DNA of 64,000 nucleotides. Source: a virus. The notes under the pieces were generated by a model. That model made no database searches. It was not told the DNA's origin and saw nothing but the letters and a program-made list of their open reading frames with translations. The stretch is taken from IMG/VR virus record IMGVR_UViG_3300044825_001003, positions 1 through 64,000 of that record; one strand, written 5' to 3'. The position numbers and the translations under genes are program-made. The first letter of the stretch is position 1, and each line of letters begins with the position of its first letter. Positions 9,570-28,978 of this stretch are shown here, one piece after another.

Positions 9570-9571
9570 GG

Positions 9572-9808
9572 TTAAGTCTCCCGTTCGATCTTTGTAATGG
9601 TTCCGTCGTCCTCGACGTAGATGTTGGTCCGGAGGAGAACGTCGAGCGCTCCGTCCGTAAACAGACTGGCCTTGATTCTGCTGCCGGGGTATCGCCTTTT
9701 CGCTTCCGGCTGGCATCCAGTGAAGGTGTCGCCAACTTGCAAGGATGCCGCCCACATTTTTCCCTGCATTAAGGCCGTGTGCAATTCGATAATCTCGTTA
9801 TCAACCAT
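9572..9808 (-). CDS. Hypothetical protein
   Basis: MVDNEIIELH...; fills the operon gap. Confidence 0.6.
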   Translation of the reverse strand: MVDNEIIELHTALMQGKMWAASLQVGDTFTGCQPEAKRRYPGSRIKASLFTDGALDVLLRTNIYVEDDGTITKIERET

Positions 9809-9810
9809 GA

Positions 9811-10713
9811 TTAGAACTCCACGTCGATTAGCCCGCAATTAAAGACGGGCAGGTTAAGGGGTTGCCAGCACTCGCGGATCACCTGCGGGCGGTCGTCGAA
9901 TACGGCAAAGACGTTGTACTTATCCTTGATATGCGTCTCGTACATCTCACGCTTTACCTCGCTATCACGCCGCTTGTTGTCCTTGCCGCGCATGACGAGG
10001 CTGTAGTTAAGCGCACTGAACCCGCAGGTTAAATCCAGGGCTTTCTTGGTATCGCTAATGCAATTCTCTGATCTCCCGGTGAAAAAGAAAACCATGAATC
10101 CATACCGATGCGTTAAGGCTATGATGGTAGAAAGTACATGAAGTCTAACGTCATCGCCCAATACTTTGGTTTCGTCGTATGGATTCCGGTCTTTTGGATC
10201 GAATAGAGTTCCATCCAGATCGCAGATAATACATTCGGGTAGTTTATTAGGCTTGAAATTCGGCAGCGTTCGCCGTTCTCGCCCTTCCTTGTGCTTCTTC
10301 CACATCTTACGGATGACCTCCTCTCCTACTTGCTCGTGGCCAGTGCGGAGGGAATCGCGCCGGATACACTCGTTAACCGGGACCATCGTGAAGTCCACTA
10401 GCTCGACCTCGTACCCCAGGGATTTGCACAGTTCCACTGTCTTGTCGAGCGTGTCACGGTTCATGTGGGTATTGTCCACGATGATGTCCCACTCGACCTT
10501 AGAGAACGCCGTTATCATCCCCTCGCGGAGCCGCCTGACCGTATTCTCTACATCCTTATTCCACTCGCGGTTACCGCGTTCTTCGTAAATCTCGTTACGG
10601 ATGGAGTCGTTGTTAACGATGCGGAATTCGGGGATACCCAGTTCTCGAACCTTGTTCCGCGCCCATGTGGACTTCCCACTGGCGGGAAGTCCTACTGTGA
10701 TGTATGCTTTCAT
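9811..10713 (-). CDS. pseT: Polynucleotide 5'-kinase / 3'-phosphatase (T4 PseT-like)
   Basis: GLPASGKST P-loop, DNT, then a HAD domain with CDLDGTL, TGR and FDDRPQV. Confidence 0.92.
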   Translation of the reverse strand: MKAYITVGLPASGKSTWARNKVRELGIPEFRIVNNDSIRNEIYEERGNREWNKDVENTVRRLREGMITAFSKVEWDIIVDNTHMNRDTLDKTVELCKSLGYEVELVDFTMVPVNECIRRDSLRTGHEQVGEEVIRKMWKKHKEGRERRTLPNFKPNKLPECIICDLDGTLFDPKDRNPYDETKVLGDDVRLHVLSTIIALTHRYGFMVFFFTGRSENCISDTKKALDLTCGFSALNYSLVMRGKDNKRRDSEVKREMYETHIKDKYNVFAVFDDRPQVIRECWQPLNLPVFNCGLIDVEF

Positions 10714-10715
10714 GG

Positions 10716-10928
10716 TTACTTAATCCTCCAGATCCTTACTTCTTTATCGCTCACCGTGCGGATCTTTAGCTTAAACCCGCACCGCCTCGCTACCTCTCCA
10801 GCCGATGTGTGAACGGTTTGTCGCACCTTGAACTCGGTTACAACTAGGCAGTCACCTACCTCTAGCTTCCTCACTTCGGAGGCTATACTCGGCTGAGGCG
10901 TTAAGTCTTTTCTAATCTCTAGCTTCAT
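10716..10928 (-). CDS. Small basic hypothetical protein (possibly DNA-binding)
   Basis: LEVGD...VRIWRIK pattern; RBS AAAGGAGAAC. Confidence 0.7.
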   Translation of the reverse strand: MKLEIRKDLTPQPSIASEVRKLEVGDCLVVTEFKVRQTVHTSAGEVARRCGFKLKIRTVSDKEVRIWRIK

Positions 10929-10940
10929 CGTGTTCTCCTT

Positions 10941-11183
10941 TTACTGAAACTTCAACAGTTCCCATTCCTTTCTGGTGAAGCTCTCGCTAACCTTGGTTAG
11001 CAGTCCCCACTTCTTCGCCGTCACTCTGGCGGCTTCAAGCGCGGCGATATCGTGGTTATCCTCACGGCTGACCTCTCGGTTGACCTTTAAGGTAAACCGC
11101 TGCTTGCCGTTAATGTAGACGGCGATGCAATCCAGCTTGCGCTTCCGGTTCCGCTCGGTGGTTCTGATTTTAATGGTTTCCAT
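10941..11183 (-). CDS. Small basic hypothetical protein
   Basis: Strong RBS AAAGGAGAA. Confidence 0.7.
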   Translation of the reverse strand: METIKIRTTERNRKRKLDCIAVYINGKQRFTLKVNREVSREDNHDIAALEAARVTAKKWGLLTKVSESFTRKEWELLKFQ

Positions 11184-11280
11184 TGTGGTTAATTCTCCTT
11201 TGATTTATCGACGTAGTAATCCACGTCCCCCAGTCCACTAGTCCAACGGATTGGATGAATGGACTGGAAGGGAGGACTGG

Positions 11281-11727
11281 TTATCTCTTAATCGCGTCTC
11301 TCATTTCCCGCATCTGTTTCAGGGCGTCTGATACCGCTCCGATAGCCTGATCGAGAGTGCGTTTAACCTCCTCGACCTCTGTGCCGATTACCGTAGAGCA
11401 GATATCAAGGTCTGATACGGTGCAGTCTAGGTTAACAGCAGCCTTTGTTGCTCTATCTATCGCCGTCTGTAGAAACACTCGCTCTTTCGAGTGTGCCGCA
11501 GCTCCTTCTTCTAGGGACGGAGCAATTAACCTCTTCTCGTTCGCGTCTGAAAGGAGATCCCCCACGGCCTCCGTGAAGGAATCACACATATATGTCATGC
11601 CCTCCAGGTTCTCGTACTCTACATCCTTGCCGTCTTCTATTGGTCCGAAGACAGTACCAATAAATCGGTTACGAAGGTAGACTTGGACGAATTGATTTCC
11701 CTTGTCGTATTTGTAGGTGATCTTCAT
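11281..11727 (-). CDS. Hypothetical protein
   Basis: ORF with RBS AAGGGA. Confidence 0.65.
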   Translation of the reverse strand: MKITYKYDKGNQFVQVYLRNRFIGTVFGPIEDGKDVEYENLEGMTYMCDSFTEAVGDLLSDANEKRLIAPSLEEGAAAHSKERVFLQTAIDRATKAAVNLDCTVSDLDICSTVIGTEVEEVKRTLDQAIGAVSDALKQMREMRDAIKR

Positions 11728-11891
11728 GGTTAGTCCCTTGTAGTCCAGGCCGCGAACCCCGCCGTCATGATGACGCCCAGGATTCCCAGTCTGGTAGCTT
11801 CCGGTGTGCCGCTGGTTACTCCAGCGACAATTATGGACATTGAGGCGACTAGTCCTGCCGCGCAGATAAGGGCTGTCTCGTTAGTCATTGG

Positions 11892-12098
11892 CTAGTTCTC
11901 CCTTGTGTATGCTGGGATAAACCCCCAGCGGTTAGTGTGTACGGGGTTAACTTCGGTTAGCTTGGGGTTAGCGCCGAAGGCGTAATTGCCAAACAGGTCC
12001 ATTGGTCGGGGAGGTGCCGAATGTTGGCACATATAGAACACCTCCCCGTTAATCATGCAGGGATGCTGAGGGCAGCAGAGCCGATTAGGCCAGCTCAT
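11892..12098 (-). CDS. Small hypothetical protein
   Basis: ATGA overlap with 12095..12388. Confidence 0.55.
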   Translation of the reverse strand: MSWPNRLCCPQHPCMINGEVFYMCQHSAPPRPMDLFGNYAFGANPKLTEVNPVHTNRWGFIPAYTREN

Positions 12099-12388
12099 CG
12101 CCCTAGTTCCTCGTTAAGCCAAGCCCAGTTTGTAGCGTCCGTCCATGGGAGGCGCGGCTCGTATTTGCCGTTTTCGCCGTATACGCTGTAATTGTCGCTA
12201 CAGCATCCGCAGCCGTTAGTTTGCTCCTCTAAGTTGGTGCCGATCACAACTACACCCCCGGTTTCGCGCCGGATAACCAACCCGATAGGCAAGCTAAACC
12301 ACGGCCAGTCATCATGTTTGATCCACGGCAGCGTCTCGATTGGTTTCCAGTTCAAAGAATTGGCCAGTCTTTTGAATCGCTCGTTCAT
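12095..12388 (-). CDS. Hypothetical protein (paralogue of 6132..6374)
   Basis: LNWKPIETLPW...LPIGLVI...GGVVVIG...WAWLNE; RBS GGAGG. Confidence 0.7.
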   Translation of the reverse strand: MNERFKRLANSLNWKPIETLPWIKHDDWPWFSLPIGLVIRRETGGVVVIGTNLEEQTNGCGCCSDNYSVYGENGKYEPRLPWTDATNWAWLNEELGR

Positions 12389-12404
12389 TCATCCTCCATG
12401 TAGA

Positions 12405-12433
12405 ATGTTAACAGTTTGCGCGGTTATTGTCAA
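12405..12433 (-). promoter_or_regulatory. sigma70-like early promoter
   Basis: TTGACA-17 nt-TAACAT with an extended TG. Confidence 0.7.
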
Positions 12434-12495
12434 TGCCGATATTCATTTTGAACGTAGAATTATTCGGCGGTTACTGTTAAATCAGTAGTGGGTGG

Positions 12496-13194
12496 TTAGC
12501 CCACTACTTCCAGGCAATTGTGGCAGAGCAGGGCGTGGGAGTATGCCTGAGATTGGAATAGCGGCTCCAATTGCCCGCACCAGTCGCAATAGCTGGTTAC
12601 GGCGCGGTCATAGTCGGTTATGGCGGGCGTGATCTTGGAGGGGGTGTAGTGGTACGTTTTGCGGCGGATTAGAGAATCCTCATTACTGAACCATATACCC
12701 TTGCGCCACAGGCCGCTCGATTCGTTAATGATGGTTAGCGCACCGCTGGCTGCGAGGAAGGTGAGTTTATTCCGTCTGCCTATTTGCCGTCCGATAGCGG
12801 CAGAGAATGATTTGCTGGTAATGTCGCGTTCGGTTACGTTGGCCAGTCGCAACTCGCGGGCGAAGTGCCATGTATCAGACATGGCGGGGTTATCGCATTT
12901 AATGTCCAATACCCCGTTATGCGCCATGAACAGGCGGCGGTTAATGCGGAAGGGGTGACAGTTGTTCGTGTTAACCGCGCCATGCGTAGCCCAGCGGGTG
13001 TGTACGACATGGGGATGCTCTACCGCTTCCTGATAGGCCAGTTTGAGCTTGGATAGGGTTAGCCCGCGCCGGACGGTTACCGCGCCGTTACGGGCGAACA
13101 TGACGCCCCAACCATCCGGGTTGTTGTCATAGGCGGTTTCGAGAATGTCGGGGGAGACGGCGCTCCCCTCCGGTGATGCGATGATAAGGCACAT
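12496..13194 (-). CDS. Class II (Ntn) glutamine amidotransferase, copy B
   Basis: MCLII, NPDGWG, HTRWATHG, NCHPF, AHNGV, SDTWHF, WFSN; C-terminal CxxC..CxxC. Confidence 0.92.
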   Translation of the reverse strand: MCLIIASPEGSAVSPDILETAYDNNPDGWGVMFARNGAVTVRRGLTLSKLKLAYQEAVEHPHVVHTRWATHGAVNTNNCHPFRINRRLFMAHNGVLDIKCDNPAMSDTWHFARELRLANVTERDITSKSFSAAIGRQIGRRNKLTFLAASGALTIINESSGLWRKGIWFSNEDSLIRRKTYHYTPSKITPAITDYDRAVTSYCDWCGQLEPLFQSQAYSHALLCHNCLEVVG

Positions 13195-13196
13195 GG

Positions 13197-14438
13197 TTAG
13201 TTGTCCTCTCCGGTGTTTTCCGCGCCGATAAAGGCGTTCAGATTAGGATACTGCTTACGGTTATCGGCGACGAATTTGATGAAATCCTCCCCGCGCAACT
13301 CCCGATAGCTCCGGTCGCGGGTAAATTCGATGGTCGCCTTTACGAATTCGAGATTTTTGAGGATGCGATCTTTGCGGGTGTTACCCCGGAAGATACGGAA
13401 TTCGATGGTATCGTCGTTTTGCAGGTTAATCGCTTCATAGCGATCATAACTCCGGCCACACTTGCCCATCTTCTTATCGCTCTTCAATCTGGCCCAGCTT
13501 TCACAGTCGCGTTGCGCTACGCGCTTTACCAGCTCCCAGTTTTCCGGCGCGTTAATGAATACCACGATCTTTTGAATATGCATCGGCGTCAATGCGGAGC
13601 GGTTAACATGGACGTGAAAGCCACATCGACCGGAAGTATGGGACGATACGCCCTTGATATTCTCGCGCCAATCGTTAGCCCACAGGGATTTAATGGACTC
13701 CCAATCATGGGGATGCGTCACAATCTCGAATCCCCGCCCAATGCTCCCATCTTCTTTTAGATAGACGTGATCTTCGCCCAGGTTATCCAACGCTTCTTGG
13801 GCGGCGTGATCGAGGTTACGGTCGCTTGCTACGTTAACCTCTAGCTCGCATCCAAAATAAAGCACGCCGTTAGCAGCGCGGTTAGAGCTGGTTTTACCGT
13901 GCCGGAAGAATTCAAGGTCCGGAGAATATCCGTAATTGTGGACTAATCGGCTAGAGTTATTGCCATAGCAATCCTGACAATACGCACCACCGTCATCGTC
14001 GCATAGGACGTCATCTCCGGGCACCAGGATACCGCAATCTTCGCAGCGACAATAATTATCTCGGCAGCTCTCGCATATTTCGCCGCCGTTATGTTCACCG
14101 CAGCTATGGCGGTTATGGCACAATTCGGTACAATCGACGCAGGTAAACGTATTTTCGCGCCAGCAGCGGTTACAGCCGATGTTAGTACGCCCCCAGCCGC
14201 CCCCGGCCATCCGTAGTTCAATCTCACCGTTATAGCTAAGGTCATCTTCCGGCACGTCACGCCCGCATGACGGACATTCGACGCGCTTAGGTTCCCTATC
14301 CGCGCAATCCTCGCAGATATCCAGGGCGGCAACTAGGTCGCCGTTAGCATCTTCTATTACCGGATCGCCATAGTCGGCATCGTGCATCGTGCCATGATTA
14401 ACGATATGCTCGTGGCAGCAAACGCAGGTTATCGGCAT
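13197..14438 (-). CDS. Amidoligase (COOH-NH2 ligase) with N-terminal Zn-ribbon repeats, copy B
   Basis: FGCELEV, KEDGSIGRGFEIVTHP, CGFHVHV, DRYEAIN, TIEFRIFRG. Confidence 0.9.
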   Translation of the reverse strand: MPITCVCCHEHIVNHGTMHDADYGDPVIEDANGDLVAALDICEDCADREPKRVECPSCGRDVPEDDLSYNGEIELRMAGGGWGRTNIGCNRCWRENTFTCVDCTELCHNRHSCGEHNGGEICESCRDNYCRCEDCGILVPGDDVLCDDDGGAYCQDCYGNNSSRLVHNYGYSPDLEFFRHGKTSSNRAANGVLYFGCELEVNVASDRNLDHAAQEALDNLGEDHVYLKEDGSIGRGFEIVTHPHDWESIKSLWANDWRENIKGVSSHTSGRCGFHVHVNRSALTPMHIQKIVVFINAPENWELVKRVAQRDCESWARLKSDKKMGKCGRSYDRYEAINLQNDDTIEFRIFRGNTRKDRILKNLEFVKATIEFTRDRSYRELRGEDFIKFVADNRKQYPNLNAFIGAENTGEDN

Positions 14439-14471
14439 TGTCGGTTAGCTCCTTTATTCGGTTATTCGGGT

Positions 14472-14524
14472 TAATGCAACCGTCCCGGCGCACTATCGGG
14501 TTAATGCGCCGGATGGTAGCACTA
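14472..14524 (-). other. Conserved intergenic RNA hairpin, copy 1
   Basis: Minus strand TAGTGCTACCATCCGGCGCATTA-loop-TAGTGCGCCGGGACGGTTGCATTA; related copy at 15669-15722. Confidence 0.6.
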
Positions 14525-14528
14525 GCGG

Positions 14529-14705
14529 TTATGTGTGAATATATCCGTCTGGTTCCACGCCCCAAAACATCCCGGCGTGGGTAAACGTATAGCACCCCAT
14601 GAGAGGGGAAAAAGTGAGGCGCGATAGGATATCGGCAGCCACGGGCGGATCGAACCGCTTTATAATTGCGTCGGTTACGGGTGCGGGGATTAAATTCTGG
14701 TTCAT
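14529..14705 (-). CDS. Small hypothetical protein (58 aa, below the ORF-track cutoff)
   Basis: MNQNLIPAPVTDAIIKRF...AGMFWGVEPDGYIHT; RBS AAAGGA and a promoter upstream. Confidence 0.7.
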   Translation of the reverse strand: MNQNLIPAPVTDAIIKRFDPPVAADILSRLTFSPLMGCYTFTHAGMFWGVEPDGYIHT

Positions 14706-14724
14706 TGGGTTATTCCTTTATGGG

Positions 14725-14753
14725 ATTATGCGCCGTTATGGGCGGGATTGCAA
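14725..14753 (-). promoter_or_regulatory. sigma70-like early promoter
   Basis: TTGCAA-17 nt-CATAAT. Confidence 0.65.
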
Positions 14754-14854
14754 GGGTTTAACGGTTACCGGGGACGCCGGTTATGGCGCGATTGGTTAAC
14801 CCGGCAGCGGCTATTTTGGCCGCTGCCAGGTTCCCGCCAGGTTTTGCGCCGGTG

Positions 14855-15397
14855 CTATTCGTATCGCGGGCGGCGTTCGGGGGTGAATTCCGGCGGGGTG
14901 TCGCGGTTAATGCGCGCGACATATACGCCGTCAGATAGAACGGATGAAATATCACGCTTCCCTTCATTTGGCCCCCATAGGCGGCTATCCAGCTTGTTGT
15001 TAAGGCGGGTTGTATACTGGCGGGCGGCGCGATGCGTTCGGAACCGTCGCAGGGATCGGGCTAGTTGCGCGGTGTTGTACCACCAACCGCCTTCTTCCCC
15101 TCCCCCGTAGGCCATGTCTTCCAGGTAGACTGACACGATATAGCGGCCCGTGCCGGGGATAGCCCGAAGGCGGGCGATGCGGGCAGCTTCCCGTTCGGCG
15201 GCAGCGCGGCGTTCGGTTTCGAGTTGCGCGGCGGCGGCGGCGCGGGCATCCAGTAATGCGCGGCGGGCTTCCCCGCTATCGAACATGGCGGCGATATTCT
15301 CGCAAGTATCCAGTTCTTTAACCCATTGGGCCGTGCTGTAATAGCGGGTGCGGAGCCGTTCTAGGATGCTAACGGCGCGTTCGTAGGTGATAGGCAT
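14855..15397 (-). CDS. Early hypothetical protein
   Basis: C-terminal VSVYLEDMAYGGGEEGGWWY motif; coupled to the upstream gene. Confidence 0.7.
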   Translation of the reverse strand: MPITYERAVSILERLRTRYYSTAQWVKELDTCENIAAMFDSGEARRALLDARAAAAAQLETERRAAAEREAARIARLRAIPGTGRYIVSVYLEDMAYGGGEEGGWWYNTAQLARSLRRFRTHRAARQYTTRLNNKLDSRLWGPNEGKRDISSVLSDGVYVARINRDTPPEFTPERRPRYE

Positions 15398-15639
15398 TAT
15401 TCGGCCCCCGGTAGCGCCGTAAAAACATATCCGGTAGCCGTGAACCCGCCGTTAAGTTCTGGTAGCGTGATCCAATTGGCGGAGGCGTACATACGAGCGG
15501 CCTCCAGATGATTGGCCGCTATCCCTAGCTCGTAATTCCAGGGATAATACCGCCGCTTATATCCGGCGGCGGATACGCTGATCCGGGACGGCAAGGTGTT
15601 GGTTGCGCCGTGATAGCGCGTGATAATAGCAGAGTACAT
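15397..15639 (-). CDS. Early hypothetical protein
   Basis: AIITRYHGATNTLPSRI; RBS GGAGAA. Confidence 0.7.
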   Translation of the reverse strand: MYSAIITRYHGATNTLPSRISVSAAGYKRRYYPWNYELGIAANHLEAARMYASANWITLPELNGGFTATGYVFTALPGAE

Positions 15640-15668
15640 GATAATTCTCCGTGGTTTGGTTTGAGGCG

Positions 15669-15722
15669 TAATGCTGCCGCCCCGTTACCCCGCCCGCCGC
15701 GAGATACCGGATGGAAGCACTA
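15669..15722 (-). other. Conserved intergenic RNA hairpin, copy 2
   Basis: Minus strand TAGTGCTTCCATCCGG...ACGGGGCGGCAGCATTA. Confidence 0.55.
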
Positions 15723-15727
15723 CTGAT

Positions 15728-16099
15728 TTAAGAGTAGTTGCCGCGTTCTACGATATCGCCCCAGCAACCGACCTTATAATCCCCGTTGACGCGCATAAGG
15801 GTAACGGCGTAAGTATCGCCCGCGTTGACGTATTCAATCGACGGGGAACGCTTCCCCCGTCCGGCGGGGATATATTCGACGCCGTATCCCCCGATTATTT
15901 CGGAAGCGATAGATAGTTTAGTAGTGCATAACTCTAGCGGATGGTAGCAGAATTCGTACCACGATTTAGTGAACGGATACTTTCCGCTATCCAGGGCGGC
16001 TTCCAGGGCGTCTCGTTTGGTAATGCTGAGAATGGCGTGCAGTTCGGCGGCGCGTTCGGCGGCGATTGTTTCGAGTTGCTTGATGCTGGGAATCTTCAT
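15728..16099 (-). CDS. Early hypothetical protein
   Basis: GYGVEYI...YVNAGDTYAVT...WGDIVE; RBS AAGGA. Confidence 0.72.
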   Translation of the reverse strand: MKIPSIKQLETIAAERAAELHAILSITKRDALEAALDSGKYPFTKSWYEFCYHPLELCTTKLSIASEIIGGYGVEYIPAGRGKRSPSIEYVNAGDTYAVTLMRVNGDYKVGCWGDIVERGNYS

Positions 16100-16178
16100 G
16101 CTAGTTTTCCTTAGTTGGTTTGAGGCGGTAAACCGCTCAGTCTAGCCCGCGATTGAATAACGGGCTAACCTGAGAAGA

Positions 16179-16475
16179 CTAGTCGCCGTACTGGGCGGTA
16201 TCGAAGCTAATATCCTCAAAATACATACTCTGGATGTAGGCTTCCGCCGCTTCCGCCGTATCGAACGGGCCGGACCAATCGGTACAGTCGAGATATCCAG
16301 GGGCGGATAGGCGGGCGAAATATCCCGATTTAAGGCGCGCGTCGAATTTATCGCACCCCATAATTTTAGCGGCTTCCTCCCAGCCGAAATAGCGGGAATC
16401 TAGCATATCGCCATTGTTTTCGCTCACCCAAAAATGTCCCCGGATAATTTCCGGCTTCATGAAGCTATCAGACAT
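16179..16475 (-). CDS. Early hypothetical protein
   Basis: GYFARLSAPGYLDCTDWSGPF; RBS GGAGGTG. Confidence 0.72.
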   Translation of the reverse strand: MSDSFMKPEIIRGHFWVSENNGDMLDSRYFGWEEAAKIMGCDKFDARLKSGYFARLSAPGYLDCTDWSGPFDTAEAAEAYIQSMYFEDISFDTAQYGD

Positions 16476-16622
16476 TACAGCACCTCCCTGATGACGATAA
16501 GAGCGGCGACGATAACTGCAAGGCAGATACCGTCATAAATCATGTTCAATAGATTCTTCATTGTCTCGTATCCTTTACTCTGTCGTTTTTACTTTACTGC
16601 TACGCGCCCCGGCGGGCGGGGG

Positions 16623-16871
16623 CTAGGCCCCCGGCTCCGTGATGGGCTTAAATGCGTTTACAGTGGGGATTGATTCGGGATCAATGCCCATACGCTTGAC
16701 TGCTTTCTCAGCCGCGCTATGGGCGGCAGTATCCCGTAGATAGGCTAACGCGCTGCCACTTTCGATAGCACCGTAGCGTTTCTCCCAGCAGAGTAACGTG
16801 GCAAGGCGGGCACGTTTCGCGCGTTCTTTTGGAACGCTGATAGCAAACGTGTAGTTCAGGTATTCCTTCAT
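16623..16871 (-). CDS. Early hypothetical protein
   Basis: RBS GGAGA; 82 aa. Confidence 0.6.
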   Translation of the reverse strand: MKEYLNYTFAISVPKERAKRARLATLLCWEKRYGAIESGSALAYLRDTAAHSAAEKAVKRMGIDPESIPTVNAFKPITEPGA

Positions 16872-16935
16872 GTTTTTTCTCCAAATGATTGATTGTAAAC
16901 AAGTTTAGCCCCCCGGCAAGCCGGGAGGCTGGAAA

Positions 16936-17157
16936 CTACTGCGGTAATACGCGCGGCTGGTGCGGCATCATCCAGCCGCGCAGGTCCAGTCCACAAGTCC
17001 AGGCGGCCGCATAAGCGGCCCAAAACGTACAACGGACACGGGAACGGCGAAGAGCGCGGCCCGCTGCGTAAACAGGCTCTTCATTCCGGTAGATATCGGC
17101 CTTAATCGCGGCAACCCGCGCGCGGCGGAAAGATTTGGCGTTCAGTGTGTTTGTCAT
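16936..17157 (-). CDS. First gene of the left arm, probably leaderless
   Basis: TTGACT-16 nt-TATTCT-6 nt-ATG (17157). Confidence 0.6.
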   Translation of the reverse strand: MTNTLNAKSFRRARVAAIKADIYRNEEPVYAAGRALRRSRVRCTFWAAYAAAWTCGLDLRGWMMPHQPRVLPQ

Positions 17158-17262
17158 GGACCTAGAATAACACAACCAAAATTAGAGTCAAGATCTATTT
17201 GTACATAGAATCATTAAACCGGCTTAATCTTCTCATCCTATCATTATTATATATGCGCGATA

Positions 17263-17490
17263 CAGCCGGGGGTGCCGGGGGTGCCATGGCGGGCGGTGCG
17301 GGGAACCGAAACCGGCGCGGGCGGTGCGGGGAACCTGGCAAAACCTGGCGGTGCGGGAACCGGCGGGGAGCCTAGCGGGAACCTGGCGGCGCGGGCGGGC
17401 TGGGAGTGACGCGGGCGGGCGGCGCGGCGGGCTTAGGCGCAGGGGGTCGGGGCGTCGGCACGGCGGGGGCTGGCATGGTGGCGGCCCCCA
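17263..17490 (+). repeat. G-rich tract with GGCGGTGCGGG(G)AACC repeats at the divergence point (candidate terminus/packaging or origin signal)
   Basis: Copies at 17292, 17320 and 17347, partial copy at 17375; extreme G skew; AT-rich flanks on both sides. Confidence 0.7.
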
Positions 17491-17836
17491 CAAACATATT
17501 TTCAAATTTTTAGAAAAATCCACCTCACCATAAACCAAACTTATACCACCCTCTATCCCCCTTAGCTACAAAACCGACACTTATGTGGCATAGATATAGA
17601 ATAGTCTATGCGCGCTTGTATAACATTTATTTATAGAGCAGCCGATATTTCCATTCTACGCGGCCTCTGTTCCGCTCTGTTTCGTAGTACCCTAGACTGC
17701 CCAGTACCATATATCGTCAAAAACCTGACAGTAACTGACTCAGATTTTCGAGCTAGATCCCCAGTACTAAACCCTCGTTAGTACCATTGCCTGTCGGGGG
17801 TCAAAACCACACTTTCGGTTGTTGTACTATATAGAG

Positions 17837-18847
17837 GTGCGATACATATCATTGTGTTCTGGGATAGAGGCGGCTAGTGTCGCGTGGGAGCCGCTTGGGT
17901 GGGTGCCTGTAGCGTTCTTTGAGATTAACAGATATTCATCTAAGCTGCTGCGGCATTACTATCCGGAGGTGCCTAACCTTGGGGATATTACGAAAATGGA
18001 TTGGCGGCGGTTGAATGGTAGGGCGGATGTAGTTGTTGGCGGGACTCCGTGCCAATCTTTTAGCATGGCGGGGAACCGTGAGTCCTTATCTGATGCTAGG
18101 GGTAATTTGACACTGGAGTTTGTAAATGCAGTTAACATCATCAAGCCAAGATTTGTTGTATGGGAAAACGTCCCAGGGGTTTTATCGACAAAGGACAACG
18201 CCTTTGGTTATTTCTTGGGAGGATTGGCTGGCGCTTCGGAGCCCTTGTCTTATTCCGCAAAGCGAGGCTGTTGGCCCGGTTCAGGTGTGGTCGATGGACC
18301 CGAGAGATCAGTCGCGTGGCGTACCTTGGACGCTCAATACTTCGGACTGGCCCAACGACGCAAGCGTGTGTTCGTTGTCGCAAGTGATCGAAACTCAACC
18401 CATCCCTTCGAAATACTTTTTGAGCCCGAAGGCGTGCAGAGGAATTCTCCACCGCTCCGTCCAGAGGAAGAGGAAGTTGCCGGAACACTTACGCGACGCT
18501 CTCCTGGCGGTAAGTGGGGAACAGATGATTCCTTCTCTGGATACCTCCTCCCATACCAAGTCAGAAGTGCCGAGGGAAGCGAAGGACTGACTTTAACTAA
18601 AAAGAATATCGGAAACCATCTCAATAACCAGACCCCCCTTGTCTTTGGTCCTGAGACGGCGGTTCGGAGATTAACTCCTCTTGAGTGTGAACGGCTTCAA
18701 GGTTTTCCTGACAACTACACCAATATCCCTGGATGTGCTGATGCTCAACGCTATAAAGCGCTTGGTGACTCGATGGCCGTCCCTGTCATGCGGTGGATTG
18801 GGGAGCGGATCAAGCGGCAGACCACACTTTGTAAACCTTGCCCATAG
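17837..18847 (+). CDS. DNA (cytosine-5)-methyltransferase
   Basis: SLCSGIEA (I), GGTPCQSFS (IV), WENVPG (VI), QRRKRVF (VIII), RRLTPLECERLQGFPD (IX), KALGDSMAVPV (X); start probably GTG 17837. Confidence 0.95.
   Translation: MRYISLCSGIEAASVAWEPLGWVPVAFFEINRYSSKLLRHYYPEVPNLGDITKMDWRRLNGRADVVVGGTPCQSFSMAGNRESLSDARGNLTLEFVNAVNIIKPRFVVWENVPGVLSTKDNAFGYFLGGLAGASEPLSYSAKRGCWPGSGVVDGPERSVAWRTLDAQYFGLAQRRKRVFVVASDRNSTHPFEILFEPEGVQRNSPPLRPEEEEVAGTLTRRSPGGKWGTDDSFSGYLLPYQVRSAEGSEGLTLTKKNIGNHLNNQTPLVFGPETAVRRLTPLECERLQGFPDNYTNIPGCADAQRYKALGDSMAVPVMRWIGERIKRQTTLCKPCP
18126..18590 (+). CDS. Nested alternative-frame ORF inside the C5-MTase gene (possible second polypeptide)
   Basis: Protein-like WTLNTSDWPNDASVCSLSQVIE...KYFLSPKACRGILHRS..RKRKLP..L..AL segment in another frame. 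Confidence 0.5.
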   Translation: MQLTSSSQDLLYGKTSQGFYRQRTTPLVISWEDWLALRSPCLIPQSEAVGPVQVWSMDPRDQSRGVPWTLNTSDWPNDASVCSLSQVIETQPIPSKYFLSPKACRGILHRSVQRKRKLPEHLRDALLAVSGEQMIPSLDTSSHTKSEVPREAKD

Positions 18848-18905
18848 GGTCTGTCAGCCTTTAGGCTACATTGTCAATCATGAAGGGTAATGCTACCATT
18901 GACAC

Positions 18906-19154
18906 ATGGGCGGATCATTTAAGAAGCATCCCATTGGTGGTAATACTACCTCTCGGTCGGAAAAGCTCTGGAAGCGGTTGTGTAACCGGAAGTTGCGGCG
19001 GGCGATCAGCGAGGCGATGCTGCGCTTTGATGATGAGTGTACGGTCATCCCAGTAGTGGATGAGGTAGTGAACAAGTGGGATGGGCCTAAGGACGGTAAG
19101 CGGTACTACGATAAGGGTGAGGTCGGTCGGCATCCGAAGCTTATCCGGAAATAG
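18906..19154 (+). CDS. Small basic hypothetical protein, leaderless
   Basis: TTGTCA-17 nt-TACCAT-6 nt-ATG. Confidence 0.7.
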   Translation: MGGSFKKHPIGGNTTSRSEKLWKRLCNRKLRRAISEAMLRFDDECTVIPVVDEVVNKWDGPKDGKRYYDKGEVGRHPKLIRK

Positions 19155-19193
19155 ACAGCCTCGCTGGATTGTGCTACCTTGATTACACCTGCC

Positions 19194-19358
19194 ATGTTAA
19201 GAGTTAACGACACAAAGTACGATCTCTGTATCTGCGGCCATGAGCGGCAGTTTCATAAGTTCCAGTGCGGGGTATCCGCTGCGGTACAGACGGAGATGAA
19301 GCGGATCTGTAAAGAGTGTGGGTGCGATAGGTTTGAGTTGTTGAAAGAGTTACAATAA
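19194..19358 (+). CDS. Small Zn-finger protein (54 aa)
   Basis: CICGHERQFH...CKECGCDRF, translated manually. Confidence 0.55.
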   Translation: MLRVNDTKYDLCICGHERQFHKFQCGVSAAVQTEMKRICKECGCDRFELLKELQ

Positions 19359-19441
19359 AGGTAATGCGCAGGTTGCTCGTTACCTCATGGTAACGATGAG
19401 GCTTTGGCCCCGCGAGCCAGTTAATCACGGGGCATTTTGAC

Positions 19442-19600
19442 ATGGATAAAGACTACCTGCTCCCAAATGAACCAGTATTAGATAAAGACGTAGCGGAGCC
19501 TGAAGACTTTTCTGCGCTCCACTACTGGGCGCTATCGAATGAAGAATGGCTGAGTCGCATGGCTGAGGTTATTAGGCGGCGTAAGCTCGATAAGTGCTAG
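19442..19600 (+). CDS. Small hypothetical protein (52 aa)
   Basis: Manual translation MDKDYLLPNEP...RRRKLDKC. Confidence 0.45.
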   Translation: MDKDYLLPNEPVLDKDVAEPEDFSALHYWALSNEEWLSRMAEVIRRRKLDKC

Positions 19601-19609
19601 AATCTCTTT

Positions 19610-20305
19610 ATGCATTATCTCGGCGGTAAATTCCGAATTAGAAAACAGATCGCGGCTCATATCCAGCCTTACGTTACAGAGCGGTACTTTGAGCCGTTCT
19701 GCGGATCAGCCTGGGTGGGAGAATTGATCCAGGCTCCGAAGAGAATCTTCTCGGACTCCCACCCTGAACTTATCGCCCTCTGGAACGCCGTGCTTAATGG
19801 CTGGCACCCTCCTGAGCATATATCGGAAGAGGAATACAAGCGGCTAAAAGATGGCGGCGGTCCACCCTACCTGAGAGGATTCGTTGGGTTTGGATGTAGC
19901 TTCTCGGGTAAGTGGTTTGGCGGGTATGCGAGAGATCCTCATTCCGAGCGCAGTTACGCCTCCAATACAAGGAACCAGTTTATCAAGAGACGTAATCTAT
20001 TTAACGGGTCTACATTTATTAACTGGGACTATCGGGATGTTTTTAGCCTACTCCATGAGGGAGATGTGGTTTATTGCGATCCTCCTTATTTTGGGACTAC
20101 CGGGTATAAGGGTACTGATCCTTTTGACCACAATCTATTCTGGGAGAACTGCCGCACTGCTGCACAGTCGGGAGTTAAGATCTTTGTGAGCGAGTACACC
20201 GCGCCAGACTACGCTAAATGCGTACTTGAAATGCCGACAAAGACCTCTCTCCACACAGATAAAGGCGTGGCGCAAGACCGTATCGAGCGACTGTTCACCA
20301 TTTAA
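19610..20305 (+). CDS. DNA adenine methyltransferase (Dam/D12 class)
   Basis: YLGGK, FEPFCGS, YCDPPY, FVSEY; leaderless layout TAGAAT-6 nt-ATG. Confidence 0.93.
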   Translation: MHYLGGKFRIRKQIAAHIQPYVTERYFEPFCGSAWVGELIQAPKRIFSDSHPELIALWNAVLNGWHPPEHISEEEYKRLKDGGGPPYLRGFVGFGCSFSGKWFGGYARDPHSERSYASNTRNQFIKRRNLFNGSTFINWDYRDVFSLLHEGDVVYCDPPYFGTTGYKGTDPFDHNLFWENCRTAAQSGVKIFVSEYTAPDYAKCVLEMPTKTSLHTDKGVAQDRIERLFTI

Positions 20306-20341
20306 TTGCCATCCTCCCCGCCTACTCGTTACCATTTACTC

Positions 20342-20761
20342 ATGGAAGATAGACAGGTATCGAAGGACTTTAAGGCTTCGGAGTTGTGGTGTAAGCACTG
20401 TAAGGCTGAGGGGATTAAGGAAGAGTTTGTCGCGGTGTTGCAGGACTTCCGTGACTTCCTTGGTGCGCCGGTTGTGATTACGAGCGGGTATCGGTGCGCC
20501 CAGCATCCGGTTGAGCGGGGGAAGAAGCCAGGGACCGTGGCTCGTCATGTGCTCGGCGTAGCGGTGGATATGTACTGCCCGTCCATGTCACTTGAGCAGT
20601 TCCATTCTAAGATCCGGGAGTTCGGTCGCTTCCAGGGGATCGGCGTCTCCCTCCCCAGCAACTTCATTCATTGCGATACCCGCACCGCTCCCGCCTACTG
20701 GTGCTATTCCTCCACCGGCAAAACCCTCCCTTGGAACGGTGAGTGGTCTTCCTTGAATTGA
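20342..20761 (+). CDS. Peptidase M15A family (candidate endolysin)
   Basis: F...E..CKHC, ITSGYRC..H, RHVLGVAVD, FIHCDTR. Confidence 0.88.
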   Translation: MEDRQVSKDFKASELWCKHCKAEGIKEEFVAVLQDFRDFLGAPVVITSGYRCAQHPVERGKKPGTVARHVLGVAVDMYCPSMSLEQFHSKIREFGRFQGIGVSLPSNFIHCDTRTAPAYWCYSSTGKTLPWNGEWSSLN

Positions 20762-20804
20762 CTCAGCCATCCTTTCTAAAGTAGAATTGCTGAAAGGAGA
20801 ATGG

Positions 20805-21041
20805 ATGAAGCAGCGGCGGATCGAGATGAAGTTCCCTAAAGGGGAATCGGCCTGCATGAGTCTTTCTTATGTCATCACGGCGCTATCCGCGGTCCATGAT
20901 CTCATGGTCCTGGCTGGGGTCAACCCGAATGATGCCATGATCGAGGGCGAGATTGCCATTTGCTACATGTCGCCACTGACGGAAGAGGAGAAAGAGAATG
21001 AGCCAGGAGACGCTGGAGTTCATCAACCGATCAGCGGCTGA
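20805..21041 (+). CDS. Hypothetical protein
   Basis: RBS AAAGGAGAA. Confidence 0.55.
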   Translation: MKQRRIEMKFPKGESACMSLSYVITALSAVHDLMVLAGVNPNDAMIEGEIAICYMSPLTEEEKENEPGDAGVHQPISG

Positions 21042-21180
21042 TAGATTTGTTGATAACGTGATTAACAACAAGGCGCGGCCTGATGACGACGAGAAGCTGA
21101 AAGGCTATCTCTTCTACCTACTTCAGTGCGCTACTGAGCGGGGGTTTACGGAGGGATTTATTGAAGGGAGGAAGGAGTGA
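20998..21180 (+). CDS. Hypothetical protein
   Basis: Operonic ORF with an RBS. Confidence 0.55.
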   Translation: MSQETLEFINRSAADRFVDNVINNKARPDDDEKLKGYLFYLLQCATERGFTEGFIEGRKE

Positions 21181-21383
21181 TGCGATACTGGACCTACGTT
21201 GAACCGGGAGAGGATGGCAAGCCGAACTACGTTACCGTGTCGGAAGAAGAGATTCGCCGGGATTACTGGCCGGTCTGGGTTCGGCTAATGGAAAACGCTG
21301 GTGGATGGTCGCCAGATCTTTGCATTGAAGATTGCATAGATGACTGGTCAACGATTCATGGCGCATGGAAGGTGGAGGAATGA
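21177..21383 (+). CDS. Hypothetical Trp-rich protein
   Basis: SEEEIRRDYW...CIDDWSTIHGAW; RBS AAGGAG. Confidence 0.65.
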   Translation: MMRYWTYVEPGEDGKPNYVTVSEEEIRRDYWPVWVRLMENAGGWSPDLCIEDCIDDWSTIHGAWKVEE

Positions 21384-21760
21384 AAGTAATCATTGCTGGA
21401 TCACGGACTTATCGCGGCGGTGCCGAGGGCGTTCATGTCGCGGTGAAAGAGTCTGGGTTTGACGTGACAACTGTTATTTCGGGAGTTGCCCGTGGCGCGG
21501 ATCTTGCTGGAGAAGACTGGGCATGGGCTAAGGGTATTCCGATTGAGCGATATCCCGCCGACTGGAAGAAGCACGGTCGATCTGCCGGGATGATCCGCAA
21601 CAACCAGATGGCCGAAGCCGCCGATGCTCTCATCGCCCTCTGGGACGGAACAAGTCGCGGCACTCTCCACATGATCTCGAAGATGAAGCTCGACGGAAAA
21701 CCCGTCTTCGTCTATTGGGATAAGAAGTGGTTTGAAGCCTTGACTGAACCCTTTGAATAA
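21380..21760 (+). CDS. SLOG-family (YspA/DUF2493-like) protein
   Basis: KVIIAGSR, VISGVARGAD, YPADWKKHGRSAGMIRNNQM, LWDGTSRGT. Confidence 0.88.
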   Translation: MKVIIAGSRTYRGGAEGVHVAVKESGFDVTTVISGVARGADLAGEDWAWAKGIPIERYPADWKKHGRSAGMIRNNQMAEAADALIALWDGTSRGTLHMISKMKLDGKPVFVYWDKKWFEALTEPFE

Positions 21761-21787
21761 CTGTACAATTGATCGAAAGGAGAACAA

Positions 21788-22006
21788 ATGCCTGTAGTTT
21801 CAACATTTCACATTTCTAGCGAAGGTGAGAATATGGTCACCGTTGGGTTCGAAGGAGGTAAGGTAAACTTTCTTCAGACTCGCGAAAACGGCGACACGAG
21901 CGTTATCCAGATAAACGAGGATATGGCCCGCTTGTTGGTTGACTGCCTCTATGCTGGCATCGGTCTTATCCGAAATGACTTCCGTTCGTCTTTTGATAAG
22001 GAATAA
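21788..22006 (+). CDS. Hypothetical protein
   Basis: RBS CGAAAGGAGAAC. Confidence 0.65.
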   Translation: MPVVSTFHISSEGENMVTVGFEGGKVNFLQTRENGDTSVIQINEDMARLLVDCLYAGIGLIRNDFRSSFDKE

Positions 22007-22008
22007 CA

Positions 22009-22209
22009 ATGTTCAAAAACCTGAATCTTGAATTGAAGAATGAACTCGACAAGCAAGAAGTAAAGATCCTAATGGGCCAGGATGGGACGGTCCATCTGAC
22101 GTTTGGATCTAATACCATGTCCATGAATATTGGGTTCGTTAATGAACTGATCGACGCGCTAACTATCGTCGCAAATGCCCGTCTTCGCATGGGACTGGGG
22201 GAAGAATGA
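22009..22209 (+). CDS. Hypothetical protein
   Basis: RBS AAGGA; operonic. Confidence 0.6.
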   Translation: MFKNLNLELKNELDKQEVKILMGQDGTVHLTFGSNTMSMNIGFVNELIDALTIVANARLRMGLGEE

Positions 22210-22382
22210 AGATACGTCTATATACTGTCGTGGCGGCTCAAACCACTTCTTCGCTAGTGAGGGATGTTAACTCCTACATTCAGGATGGCTACCAACCTTA
22301 CGGCGATATGGTAAAAGATCCAACCTCAACTATGTCGTGGTTCTATCAACCGATGGTAAAGTACGAGGAGAATGAAAAGTGA
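22206..22382 (+). CDS. DUF1737-like small protein (58 aa)
   Basis: YTVV...LVRDVNSYIQDGYQPYG...FYQPMVK; ATGA/GTGA coupling. Confidence 0.65.
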   Translation: MKIRLYTVVAAQTTSSLVRDVNSYIQDGYQPYGDMVKDPTSTMSWFYQPMVKYEENEK

Positions 22383-22579
22383 GCAATAGTCAAAACGTAA
22401 CCGTCAGCTTTCCGTTTCTTGGGATGTTGACCCTTTTGTTTATCGGCCTGAAGCTAACCAACCAGATCTATTGGTCTTGGGTTTGGGTTCTGGCTCCCAT
22501 GTGGGCTCCGATAGCACTACTGTTTCTAGTGCTTGCTATCGTGCTTATCGCTAAGCTCGTTGTGGCAATCTTTGAATAG
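22379..22579 (+). CDS. Small two-helix membrane protein
   Basis: LTLLFIGLKLTNQIYWSWVWVLAPMW. Confidence 0.75.
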   Translation: MSNSQNVTVSFPFLGMLTLLFIGLKLTNQIYWSWVWVLAPMWAPIALLFLVLAIVLIAKLVVAIFE

Positions 22580-22676
22580 CCTTATTAAAGGGAAAGCCCC
22601 TATCCTTTAATAACGACTGCGGTAATTAAAGGATGCTTTAGTTGCAAGAAAAATAATCTTGTGATAGATTAAAAGA

Positions 22677-22736
22677 GTACACAAACGGTCATAGCAGAAA
22701 AGCCCTCGACTCCCCTCCCTCCGGTCGAGGGCTTTT
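22677..22736 (+). ncRNA. Candidate sRNA 1 with a C-rich anti-SD loop
   Basis: TTGCAA(22642)-17 nt-TAGATT(22665) promoter, no ORF, 13-bp stem with loop TCCCCTCCCTCCG, ending TTTT. Confidence 0.55.
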
Positions 22737-22757
22737 GAATTGAGGTAGAATCAAAAC

Positions 22758-22925
22758 ATGGAACAAATCAGTTGCCACACTTGCAAGTACGCCGCAAAGC
22801 TGGCCTCAGCAACCGAGGCCTACTACATATGCTTCCCGATGAATCAGCGCTCAATGGATGTGTCGCAGAAGGGAGCGCCAAACTGGTGCCCTATCTTGCA
22901 ACAGAAAGAGGCGGCGAGTGAGTGA
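22758..22925 (+). CDS. Small 4-Cys protein (55 aa), leaderless
   Basis: MEQISCHTCKY...YICFP...APNWCPIL; TAGAAT-6 nt-ATG. Confidence 0.65.
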   Translation: MEQISCHTCKYAAKLASATEAYYICFPMNQRSMDVSQKGAPNWCPILQQKEAASE

Positions 22926-23136
22926 TTATTCAATTGATACCGACCCTCGCTTTATGGACAAGACCGCAAAGGTGGCACTAGGCAAGCAGGTCAAGGTAAG
23001 CTCGTGCTATAACTGTCCTTTTTATCAGAAAAGCGAACTGAAGGATTGGGAGTTCTGTCATTACGCCGGAAAAGACCTGACCTTGCGGATCGGACAGAAT
23101 TTTCCTATCTGGTGCCCGCTCGAAACCGCCCAATGA
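22918..23136 (+). CDS. Small 4-Cys protein
   Basis: SSCYNCPF...FCHY...FPIWCPL; GTG start. Confidence 0.65.
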   Translation: MSDYSIDTDPRFMDKTAKVALGKQVKVSSCYNCPFYQKSELKDWEFCHYAGKDLTLRIGQNFPIWCPLETAQ

Positions 23137-23354
23137 TACTGCAACTAAACCCTCCATTGCCCATGACTACCTCAAAAGGGCAGGGTTTTGCGCACTTTTT
23201 GATCGACTACAGCCAGGAGCACGACCTGATCTGGGTGGTTTTTATGAAAGATACCGGCCAATGCTGGTCTTTTCCCAATAAAGACGTCAGATTGGACGCA
23301 AATTTCACTCTCGGAACCGGGAAAGACCCTTGGATGTCGTCAAAAACTGACTAA
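23133..23354 (+). CDS. Hypothetical protein
   Basis: MILQLNPPLP...GFAHFLIDYSQEHDLIWVVF; ATGA coupling. Confidence 0.7.
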   Translation: MILQLNPPLPMTTSKGQGFAHFLIDYSQEHDLIWVVFMKDTGQCWSFPNKDVRLDANFTLGTGKDPWMSSKTD

Positions 23355-23363
23355 GGAGACTGA

Positions 23364-23717
23364 ATGTTGAAGATTATTGTGAATAAACCCTCCGCAGGAG
23401 GGGAGCGTGGTCATCTTTGTGCTACTTGCAAGTACTCTGATCGAGTTTCAGGCCCTGGCTGGGAACGAAATCGCTGTACTAGCTTCGGTGAAATCACTCG
23501 TCAAGTCACAGATTGCTCGTGTTATAAGACTCAGGACGAATGCAGGACTGTTCAGGATGCTCCAAACGCCATTCTGAACGCCGCGAAGTACTTTGTCGAG
23601 TACAATGGTGAGTTTTTCTGCTTGAGCTACTCGCAATTCGATGCTTTCGATGGTACTTATGACGACGAAAAGCGGGAAAAGATGATGAGAAAGTGGGGTT
23701 TCCTTCGAGATGAATAA
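23364..23717 (+). CDS. Cys-containing hypothetical protein
   Basis: LCATCKYS...C...DCSCY; RBS AAGGAG. Confidence 0.65.
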   Translation: MLKIIVNKPSAGGERGHLCATCKYSDRVSGPGWERNRCTSFGEITRQVTDCSCYKTQDECRTVQDAPNAILNAAKYFVEYNGEFFCLSYSQFDAFDGTYDDEKREKMMRKWGFLRDE

Positions 23718-23916
23718 GAATCAGACCAAAATCATGGCCGTGATCTACAAAAACCAGAATTCTGGCATCACCCCAGACGATATCGCCAAGCAAGCACGGC
23801 TTTCTAAGGAACTTGTCTCCATGGAATTGGACGCTTTAGAGAAAATCAACGCTATCATGCCCACTCCAGGCTGTCTTTATAAGCCATCTACAGGAAAATT
23901 AAAGATGTTTGCTTGA
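23710..23916 (+). CDS. Small winged-helix protein
   Basis: ITPDDIAKQARLSKELVSMELDALEKINAI, resembling the DprA C-terminal wHTH. Confidence 0.65.
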   Translation: MNKNQTKIMAVIYKNQNSGITPDDIAKQARLSKELVSMELDALEKINAIMPTPGCLYKPSTGKLKMFA

Positions 23917-23947
23917 CGGAGGCTGCTTTTCTTGCTATATTGAAAGT

Positions 23948-24010
23948 GTTAGTTCTCCTTTCGTTTGGTTGGAAGCGGGCGCGGCCTTAAAAGCCACGTC
24001 CGCTTTTTTT
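23948..24010 (+). ncRNA. Candidate sRNA 2 with a 5' anti-Shine-Dalgarno seed
   Basis: TTGACG(23913)-17 nt-TATATT(23936) with extended TG; transcript GTTAGTTCTCCTTTCGTTTGGTTGG followed by a GC hairpin and T7 terminator; no ORF. Confidence 0.72.
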
Positions 24011-24063
24011 ATGCCTAAGTAAAAGATTGAGATTGACTTACCCGCACTGTTAATATTTAATTG

Positions 24064-24342
24064 ATGCCGGTAGACTTCTCCTACATTAAAGATCCAGGAG
24101 CAACGCTAGATTATTCGTTCGATTGGACGGACTGGCTGGGCACCGGAGAGCTTTTGTCTACGGCCACATGGACTGTTCCCGCTGGGCTGACAAAGGTATC
24201 GGAGATAAACAGCGCTTACGTGGCGACTTGTAGGATTAGCGGCGGCGTAGCAGGTGTAACATACACCGTTACATGTCAAGTTACTACCGATTTGGGAGAG
24301 ATTGACCGCAGAAGTCTACAGCTTGTGGTACAAAACCGATAA
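24064..24342 (+). CDS. Small virion/fibre adaptor protein
   Basis: KDPGATLDYSFDWTDWL...ISGG..G.TYTVTC; precedes the fibre gene. Confidence 0.7.
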   Translation: MPVDFSYIKDPGATLDYSFDWTDWLGTGELLSTATWTVPAGLTKVSEINSAYVATCRISGGVAGVTYTVTCQVTTDLGEIDRRSLQLVVQNR

Positions 24343-24343
24343 T

Positions 24344-24502: not shown

Positions 24503-24504
24503 AC

Positions 24505-28970: not shown

Positions 28971-28978
28971 GGAAAAAC

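Follow-up and report, generated by a model that had tools for sequence, protein, structure and literature searches.

A GGTTA array crowded on one strand of the early arm, and a purge of the same word from the late arm of that strand, in the genome of an IMG/VR phage

Chi sites that are co-oriented and gathered toward one end of the genome have been described in phages LLS, MD8 and P1 (PMC12315714). In LLS 20 of the 23 sites are co-oriented and in MD8 the count is 32 against 0, the active word lying on the top strand and facing the right end; Chi-rich lambdoid phages are characteristically without a Rec module, according to the same source. The present study concerns a pentamer, GGTTA, which is crowded onto one strand of a 5-kb zone in IMG/VR record IMGVR_UViG_3300044825_001003, the 102,748-bp genome (G0) of an uncultured freshwater phage, whose first 64 kb form the window. 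As in LLS, MD8 and P1, G0 carries a short asymmetric word far above expectation, nearly confined to one strand and to one region; here as there, copies are gained and lost over evolutionary time, and in those phages the word is often the commonest of its length. In G0 the word is also purged from the same strand elsewhere, whereas no such purge is described for the three phages in the part of PMC12315714 consulted. Their words are the known 8-mers of their hosts, present at about 0.5–1 per kb, while here a 5-mer with no Chi assignment reaches 9.6 per kb on one strand; they have no Rec module and known ends, while G0 encodes an Erf protein and its ends are placed only by inference.

The Chi of Bacillus subtilis is a pentamer, AGCGG. 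In phage SPO1 it was counted 46 times (29 + 17 by strand) in the early terminal repeat of 13.2 kb (L102:1-13185) and 40 times in the next 36.8 kb. G0 resembles SPO1 in having a pentamer enriched in a block of early genes, a block known to be terminal in SPO1 and presumed to be so in G0. It differs in that AGCGG is a known host Chi, is about 3-fold enriched and weakly polar (29:17), and shows no purge in the 13.2–50 kb examined.

Between positions 10000 and 15000 of the window 48 copies of GGTTA were found on the plus strand, where 2.2 are expected, together with 8 of the reverse word TAACC. This makes GGTTA the most locally enriched 5-mer of the genome (Poisson P ~2.5e-46). Over the whole genome the plus strand has 91 GGTTA and 99 TAACC; 53% of the GGTTA copies lie within 5% of the genome and the remaining 43 are spread over 97.7 kb. 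An earlier note, made by hand count from this DNA, had described a dense and strand-polarized field of the word with a sharp edge. Its approximate counts proved to be exact (32 plus-strand copies in 12421–14910 and 14 in 10711–12000), and the edge is real, with zero copies between 14910 and 18205. The near absence of the word that it saw in the paralogous amidoligase A gene (2 copies in 8078–9499) and the polarity (48:8 in 10–15 kb) were likewise reproduced, and copies do sit at gene boundaries, as TAACCATG stop/start junctions at 9570, 10714, 11728 and 13195. The note had named two results that would undo its proposal, a similar density genome-wide and loss of the excess under a shuffle preserving amino acids and codons. 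The excess is confined to the 5-kb zone, and it survives the shuffle: 31 copies lie in open reading frames (ORFs), compared with 9.7 ± 2.5 (maximum 16) in 300 runs that kept each protein and each gene's own codon usage. When the shuffle was repeated on automatic ORF calls, z was 9.3.

About two thirds of the copies are coding, in the frames xTA-ACC and xxT-AAC-Cxx, and at least 7 stop codons inside or bordering the array are TAA-CC. The non-coding DNA of the array (~0.3–0.6 kb) carries about 28 GGTTA per kb. The word is a true pentamer: the four following bases are used equally, the preceding position is mildly C and no other flank is conserved. CGTTA is a weaker second form (21 copies in the array, 3.7 expected), the order of variants being GGTTA > CGTTA > TGTTA. 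Spacings range from 9 to 456 nt and appear Poisson-like by inspection, and the only tandem repeat reported by Tandem Repeats Finder is a 30-nt micro-array at 11943–11972; irregular spacing and this result rule out a tandem repeat or iteron array.

Searches with the capsid protein retrieved two nearly complete relatives, G1 and G2 (91% capsid identity), which share about 50% protein identity with G0 and 83–87% DNA identity with each other. Both possess a GGTTA array at the syntenic location of their leftward arm, with 25 and 30 copies in 5 kb, coding-shuffle z values of 4.9 (G1) and 5.2 (G2) and a non-coding density of 13–21 per kb. Of 27 aligned copies, 22 are intact in both G1 and G2, compared with 52% of all pentamers (P = 0.0016), and in the core array all 18 of 18 are. 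The positions of the copies differ between G0 and these two phages. Many G0 copies arose by amino-acid replacement, with Asn (AAC) where the orthologs and the paralog have Ser, Lys, Asp or Gly; in amidoligase B six of the eight Asn codons of this kind are at sites where both the G1 and G2 orthologs have another residue. Other copies are made by Thr following a rare CTA, ATA or GTA codon. Since copies shift position, often through amino-acid changes, selection acts on copy number and orientation and not on position. The array copies are oriented sites under selection; they do not arise as a side effect of the proteins encoded.

The array is restricted to this lineage. It is absent from the more distant relatives G3, G4 and G5 and from 37 other amidoligase loci, and a contig carrying both amidoligase paralogs (G11) has no array in the part examined; a tie to the amidoligase module was therefore rejected. 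A search of five more partial relatives for a pattern of three GGTTA copies gave no match, and these records may lack the left arm. A second candidate motif, GCCGT, in G1 and G2 was dismissed as hexamer-periodic coding repeat DNA unrelated to the array. These GCCGTn repeats specify Gly-rich low-complexity proteins on the minus strand (L032:6500-7150 and 1-154 in G1, and the equivalent 8.0–9.0 kb in G2) and mimic a second polar motif in k-mer scans.

The second half of the phenomenon lies in the plus-strand late arm of G0 (17.8–78.5 kb). In these 60.7 kb GGTTA occurs 17 times, compared with 57 expected from composition, while its reverse complement occurs 61 times. Among the 1024 pentamers, ranked by depletion relative to the homologous arm of G3, GGTTA is first in G0, first in G1 and second in G2. 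A codon-preserving shuffle of the late arm gave 46.7 ± 5.7 copies where G0 has 14, 35.5 where G1 has 9 and 44.0 where G2 has 16, corresponding to z values of -4.5 to -5.7 in the three array-bearing phages; TAACC is at expectation (z -0.2 to -0.6). In G3, the array-free relative, late-arm GGTTA is not depleted. None of the 15 one-mismatch neighbors of GGTTA is comparably depleted, and CGTTA is not purged. In 17 kb of aligned orthologous late coding DNA there are 21 copies in G3 and 3 in G0, and 8 of those losses in G0 leave the amino acids unchanged. The purge is uniform across the late genes, those for giant virion proteins included (one gene of 2367 codons has 1 copy, 8.2 being expected), and the remaining minus arm is neutral in both orientations (18 against 25 copies). 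Judging from short loci around the capsid gene, relatives whose capsid identity is at least 88% probably have the purge as well. The genome-wide same-strand purge and the presence of the array in relatives are new, going beyond the observation made in the earlier note. In the G0 lineage, then, GGTTA is selected, polar, conserved, lineage-specific and purged from the same strand elsewhere: as a DNA word it depends on strand and not on position, and selection acts on it in two directions.

A neutral origin, the array being the compositional signature of a horizontally acquired module, is extremely improbable. Among strains, small genes are gained and lost especially often in this region, as such an origin would have it; but the excess survives a shuffle that keeps each gene's codon usage, involves one exact pentamer and no general bias, consists of copies conserved above background and is coupled to a purge elsewhere. 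Neutral composition is thus contradicted by the shuffle, conservation, neighbor-word and purge results alike.

One word, on one strand of the DNA, underlies both array and purge, whereas as RNA they differ, with UAACC in the early sense and GGUUA in the late sense. This bears on the possibility that UAACC in early mRNAs is a site for an RNA-binding protein or an endoribonuclease, by analogy with RegB, or an RNA sponge. The density does peak in leaders and intergenic RNA (the ~28 per kb of G0 and 13–21 per kb of G1 and G2), all copies are in plausibly transcribed DNA, and a repair pair of polynucleotide kinase/phosphatase (PNK) and RNA ligase is present. The linked purge, however, strikes the GGUUA of late sense RNA and not UAACC, which is neutral there, and UAACC is no more often unpaired than composition-matched pentamers. 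Because late UAACC is neutral and UAACC is not specially accessible, a reader that acts on DNA, or on the non-template strand, is a more economical assumption than a factor binding RNA, and we give the RNA-level element little likelihood. Display in RNA hairpin loops was rejected separately, being no better than for composition-matched pentamers; the stop codon of amidotransferase B is a TAACC that sits in a hairpin loop. The earlier note had read the copies as oriented binding sites for a protein acting on early-entering DNA or RNA. Its selected, oriented sites are borne out by the shuffle, the relatives and the non-synonymous origins, while its RNA-level options are weakened by the same-strand purge; the early entry of this DNA stays conjectural, since the assembly is circularly permuted.

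A reader of the non-template strand could be the transcription machinery. GGTTA on that strand would pause, block or terminate rightward RNA polymerase through a phage or host factor, so that rightward antisense or read-through transcription would be stopped at the array while early transcription passed it freely toward the left, and the late genes would purge the word; in a variant, UAACC in nascent RNA would load an antitermination factor. The purge coincides exactly with the single co-transcribed late arm and is uniform over genes whose expected expression differs widely, the minus arm outside the array is neutral both ways, and the array copies are all oriented so as to spare sense transcription. 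There is precedent for polar blocks in the stoperators of cluster A mycobacteriophages, 13-bp repressor-bound sites that are mostly intergenic and occur in both arms. GGTTA resembles these in providing many asymmetric sites oriented relative to transcription, but it is a 5-bp word, mostly coding (about two thirds of copies) and limited to one zone, and the late arm shows no enrichment of sense TAACC. Moreover, sense-strand GGTTA is not purged from the array's own genes (7 copies, 3.6–3.9 expected) or from other early and middle genes, and a scan of 8500–18500 predicted no plus-strand promoter from which antisense transcripts would enter the array. Five nucleotides are very short for a roadblock protein, and domain searches of the array-region ORFs gave no candidate factor; those of the small ORFs in and next to the array yielded nothing usable. 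A polar transcription signal is accordingly rated as unlikely, though worth keeping in view.

The phage's own primase is another candidate reader. A DnaG-type enzyme is encoded beside a DnaB-like helicase and is split in two, one ORF holding the CHC2 zinc ribbon and another the TOPRIM domain, on either side of a conserved 73-amino-acid ORF, at genome positions 91662–93217 (L097:7662-9217, L097 being a piece of the G0 genome). The primase is also split in G1 and G2, and in G3 its parts are about 1.3 kb apart. The template word would be 5'-GGTTA-3' with a cryptic 3' A and a pppAACC primer, and the array would be a zone of high-frequency priming on the plus strand. Primase sites, such as the T7 pentamers and the DnaG trinucleotides, are of pentamer scale, strand-specific and read on single-stranded DNA, with an invariant 3' trinucleotide and a variable 5' end; the series GGTTA > CGTTA > TGTTA matches the GGGTC/TGGTC/GTGTC pattern of T7. 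In addition, G3, which lacks both array and purge, has a zinc-ribbon domain of only 45% identity. Priming of the lagging strand is required throughout a genome, however, and neither a local 10-fold excess nor a 60-kb purge is predicted by it; no origin-like feature was found at the array, and the purge is limited to GGTTA, sparing CGTTA. To our knowledge primase sites do not cluster locally, nor are they purged elsewhere. We regard this explanation as improbable.

Local excess coupled to a purge would be expected of a word that is dangerous in one context and useful in another, as in a decoy or sink for a host defense with an asymmetric 5-bp site (a Type III-like restriction system or an enzyme targeting single strands). 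Harmful copies would be purged from the late arm and copies in a harmless orientation near an end would titrate the enzyme. Type III sites are of 5–6 bp, asymmetric and orientation-sensitive, and T7 escapes EcoP15I through a bias in site orientation; GGTTA shares with that case an asymmetric short word and a strand bias under selection, and it is lineage-specific. In T7, however, one orientation is wholly absent and there is no local excess. In G0 both orientations persist: 91 and 99 copies genome-wide, both in the rest of the minus arm (18 vs 25) and 8 reverse copies in the array itself, with head-to-head pairs retained. No known enzyme with a GGTTA site was identified and sink behavior is hypothetical, so that a decoy seems quite improbable.

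Directional DNA motors were considered as well. The word could be a signal on the strand tracked by a packaging or ejection motor, marking a zone where the motor slows or halts ahead of the terminal cut, or a pause on entry. It is indeed a single-strand word that, for a motor travelling in one direction, is avoided over the initial 60 kb and concentrated 2.6–7.5 kb before the divergence point. Against this, the 33 kb that separate the late arm from the array are not purged, the large terminase subunit (TerL) has no close characterized relative, and no sequence-specific brake of this kind is known; such a signal is very unlikely. FtsK-orienting polar sequences (KOPS) and SpoIIIE recognition sequences (SRS) are 8-mers with a genome-wide skew toward a dif-like site, while the array occupies a single zone and the minus arm outside it is neutral. 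DNA uptake sequences (DUS) and uptake signal sequences (USS) are 9–12-mers found genome-wide in both orientations, while GGTTA is a local, polar 5-mer. The DUS of Neisseria and the USS of Haemophilus are absent from G0, and KOPS words are not enriched in it. A literature search for GGTTA in phages returned nothing relevant.

The reading we favor is that the array is Chi-like and controls a helicase-nuclease that processes DNA ends. GGTTA has the attributes of Chi: it is a short asymmetric word, co-oriented (48:8), position-independent, and present in all frames and in non-coding DNA. A signal read during translocation fits a word that is short, flankless, irregularly spaced and additive in copy number. 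Among the genes common to G0, G1 and G2 but not found in G3 is that of an SbcD/Mre11-like exonuclease, which we count in favor. What reads the word, where the DNA end lies and what recognition brings about are inferred as follows. Many co-oriented copies would lie just inside a DNA end exposed on entry or after terminase cutting, and would be read as single-stranded DNA by a helicase-nuclease moving leftward from the 15–17.8 kb side, either a host enzyme of RecBCD/AddAB type or a phage-encoded analog. Each copy would have a certain probability of turning the enzyme from degrading DNA to protecting and recombining it; if every copy acts with some chance, as proposed, copy number and orientation would be selected and exact position would not. 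Were the virion ends at the divergence point (~17.5–17.8 kb), the word would be on the strand ending 3' at the nearby end, as in LLS.

Several points weigh against Chi-like control. GGTTA matches no known Chi and there is no host match by which to place it, while known Chi words are not enriched in G0. Both contig ends cut one large helicase gene (window 1–1524 and L097:15975-18746) and the maps of the relatives are permuted relative to the G0 record, so the map is circular and the record a linearized one, and the DNA end required by this reading is a presumed one. An Erf-type annealase is encoded, whereas the Chi-rich class is without a recombination module. The strong same-strand purge of the late arm is not predicted by Chi logic, no mirror array was found across the divergence point, and a density of 9.6 per kb far exceeds that of known Chi arrays. 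With no host match, a circular map, Erf present, the density extreme and the purge unpredicted, the Chi-like reading is held tentatively and with less than even confidence. Nearly as probable is that the word is not the host's Chi but the signal of a hitherto undescribed system, specific to the phage lineage, that reads one strand directionally throughout the genome; its reader might be, for example, the phage primase-helicase, a phage nuclease or a polar factor on RNA polymerase, and a single mechanism would account for both the local saturation and the purge of the whole arm.

The coordinates of the array, its parts and neighboring features are collected in Table 1. At the right, a sigma-70-like promoter (TTGCAA-17-CATAAT) is predicted at 14753–14725 on the minus strand. 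Two inverted-repeat arms (14821–14853 and 17359–17391; 33 nt, 82% complementary, with a perfect 14-nt core) enclose a motif-free stretch of about 2.5 kb, and the sharp right edge of the array coincides with the first of them. The second lies in an 11-nt-periodic repeat of a Pro/Ala-rich ORF (17233–17538), which is hypervariable among strains and stands beside the divergent control region. In G1 the array extends closer to the divergence point, over homologs of two genes that are motif-free in G0, and the boundary is therefore positional or historical and not bound to a gene. The G0-specific PNK gene has the lowest copy density and forms a low-density left margin. PNK (9811–10713), absent from G1 and G2, and an RNA ligase (L097:11762-13075) make up a T4-like RNA repair pair.

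Table 1. Position and content of the GGTTA array of G0, its clusters, the genes that carry it and the flanking regions
Feature	Position	Strand	Remarks
GGTTA array	9570..14909	+	51 plus-strand copies, 48 within 10000-15000; coding strand of the minus-strand genes reads TAACC
Densest non-coding cluster	14427..14531	+	6 copies; amidoligase B leader and stop of 58-aa ORF
Promoter-side cluster	14673..14798	+	5 copies; around the predicted sigma-70-like promoter and leader of 58-aa ORF
Intragenic cluster	11930..11970	+	4 copies in 41 nt, inside ORF 11892-12098
Amidoligase B (PF12224)	13197..14438	-	9 sense TAACC, 8 as xxT-AAC-Cxx
Class-II glutamine amidotransferase B	12496..13194	-	8 sense TAACC, mostly rare xTA-ACC codon pairs
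Polynucleotide kinase/phosphatase	9811..10713	-	3 copies only; absent from G1 and G2
Motif-free promoter-proximal segment of leftward arm	14910..17538	-	2.6 kb; left side is the sharp edge of the array
Late plus-strand arm	17800..64000, on to ~78.5 kb of genome	+	GGTTA purged, TAACC at expectation
Erf-like annealase	3078-4085	minus arm	E 5e-41

The divergent control region itself (17540–17820) is AT-rich and contains repeated CCCAGTAC and TAGTACC boxes. A 57-nt block of it is 89% identical in G1, and in one strain 283 nt are replaced by 21 nt. Strain contigs from other water metagenomes lack whole small ORFs at 11278–11728, 12092–12383 and 14438–14712. Deletion of ORF 11281–11727 joins exactly at two GGTTA copies, which form the stop and start junctions, and GGTTA at gene boundaries may serve as microhomology for gene loss or gain.

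The minus-strand arm of G0 runs from ~17.5 kb down to 1 and then from 102.7 kb to ~79 kb. It specifies small early-type ORFs, two pairs of glutamine amidotransferase and amidoligase, PNK, a ParB-like protein, Erf and the helicase, followed by RNA ligase, the DnaG-type primase, the DnaB-like helicase, the SbcD-like exonuclease and ribonucleotide reductase. Three minus-strand tRNA genes stand in a row at L097:15333-15569 (Gln-TTG, Arg-CCT and Met-CAT). Among the genes of the late arm are those for methyltransferases, a tail spike, TerL, portal, capsid protein and giant virion proteins. Metagenomes from freshwater, drinking water and wastewater contain near-identical DNA; among cultured phages no near-identical or related genome was found. 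GTDB and bacterial genomes, searched for a host with the capsid protein and ribonucleotide reductase, contained no relatives. A search with TerL for the packaging type returned remote matches only, with no close characterized relative.

For a study made entirely by computation, the case for selection is unusually strong, about 10 copies per kb being maintained at the cost of amino-acid changes in enzymes, and the same pentamer is cut about 3-fold across 60 kb of the same strand. Some directional DNA-reading machine sees GGTTA, most likely by way of Chi-type nuclease control. If the word is Chi, it reveals the Chi of a freshwater host, extends terminal Chi arrays to a phage bearing a Rec module and makes host nuclease specificity readable from viral metagenomes. 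If the word is something else, a new process is indicated by which DNA is read directionally when phages infect. Either way, an array coupled to a same-strand purge is a simple screen that can be applied to any phage genome.

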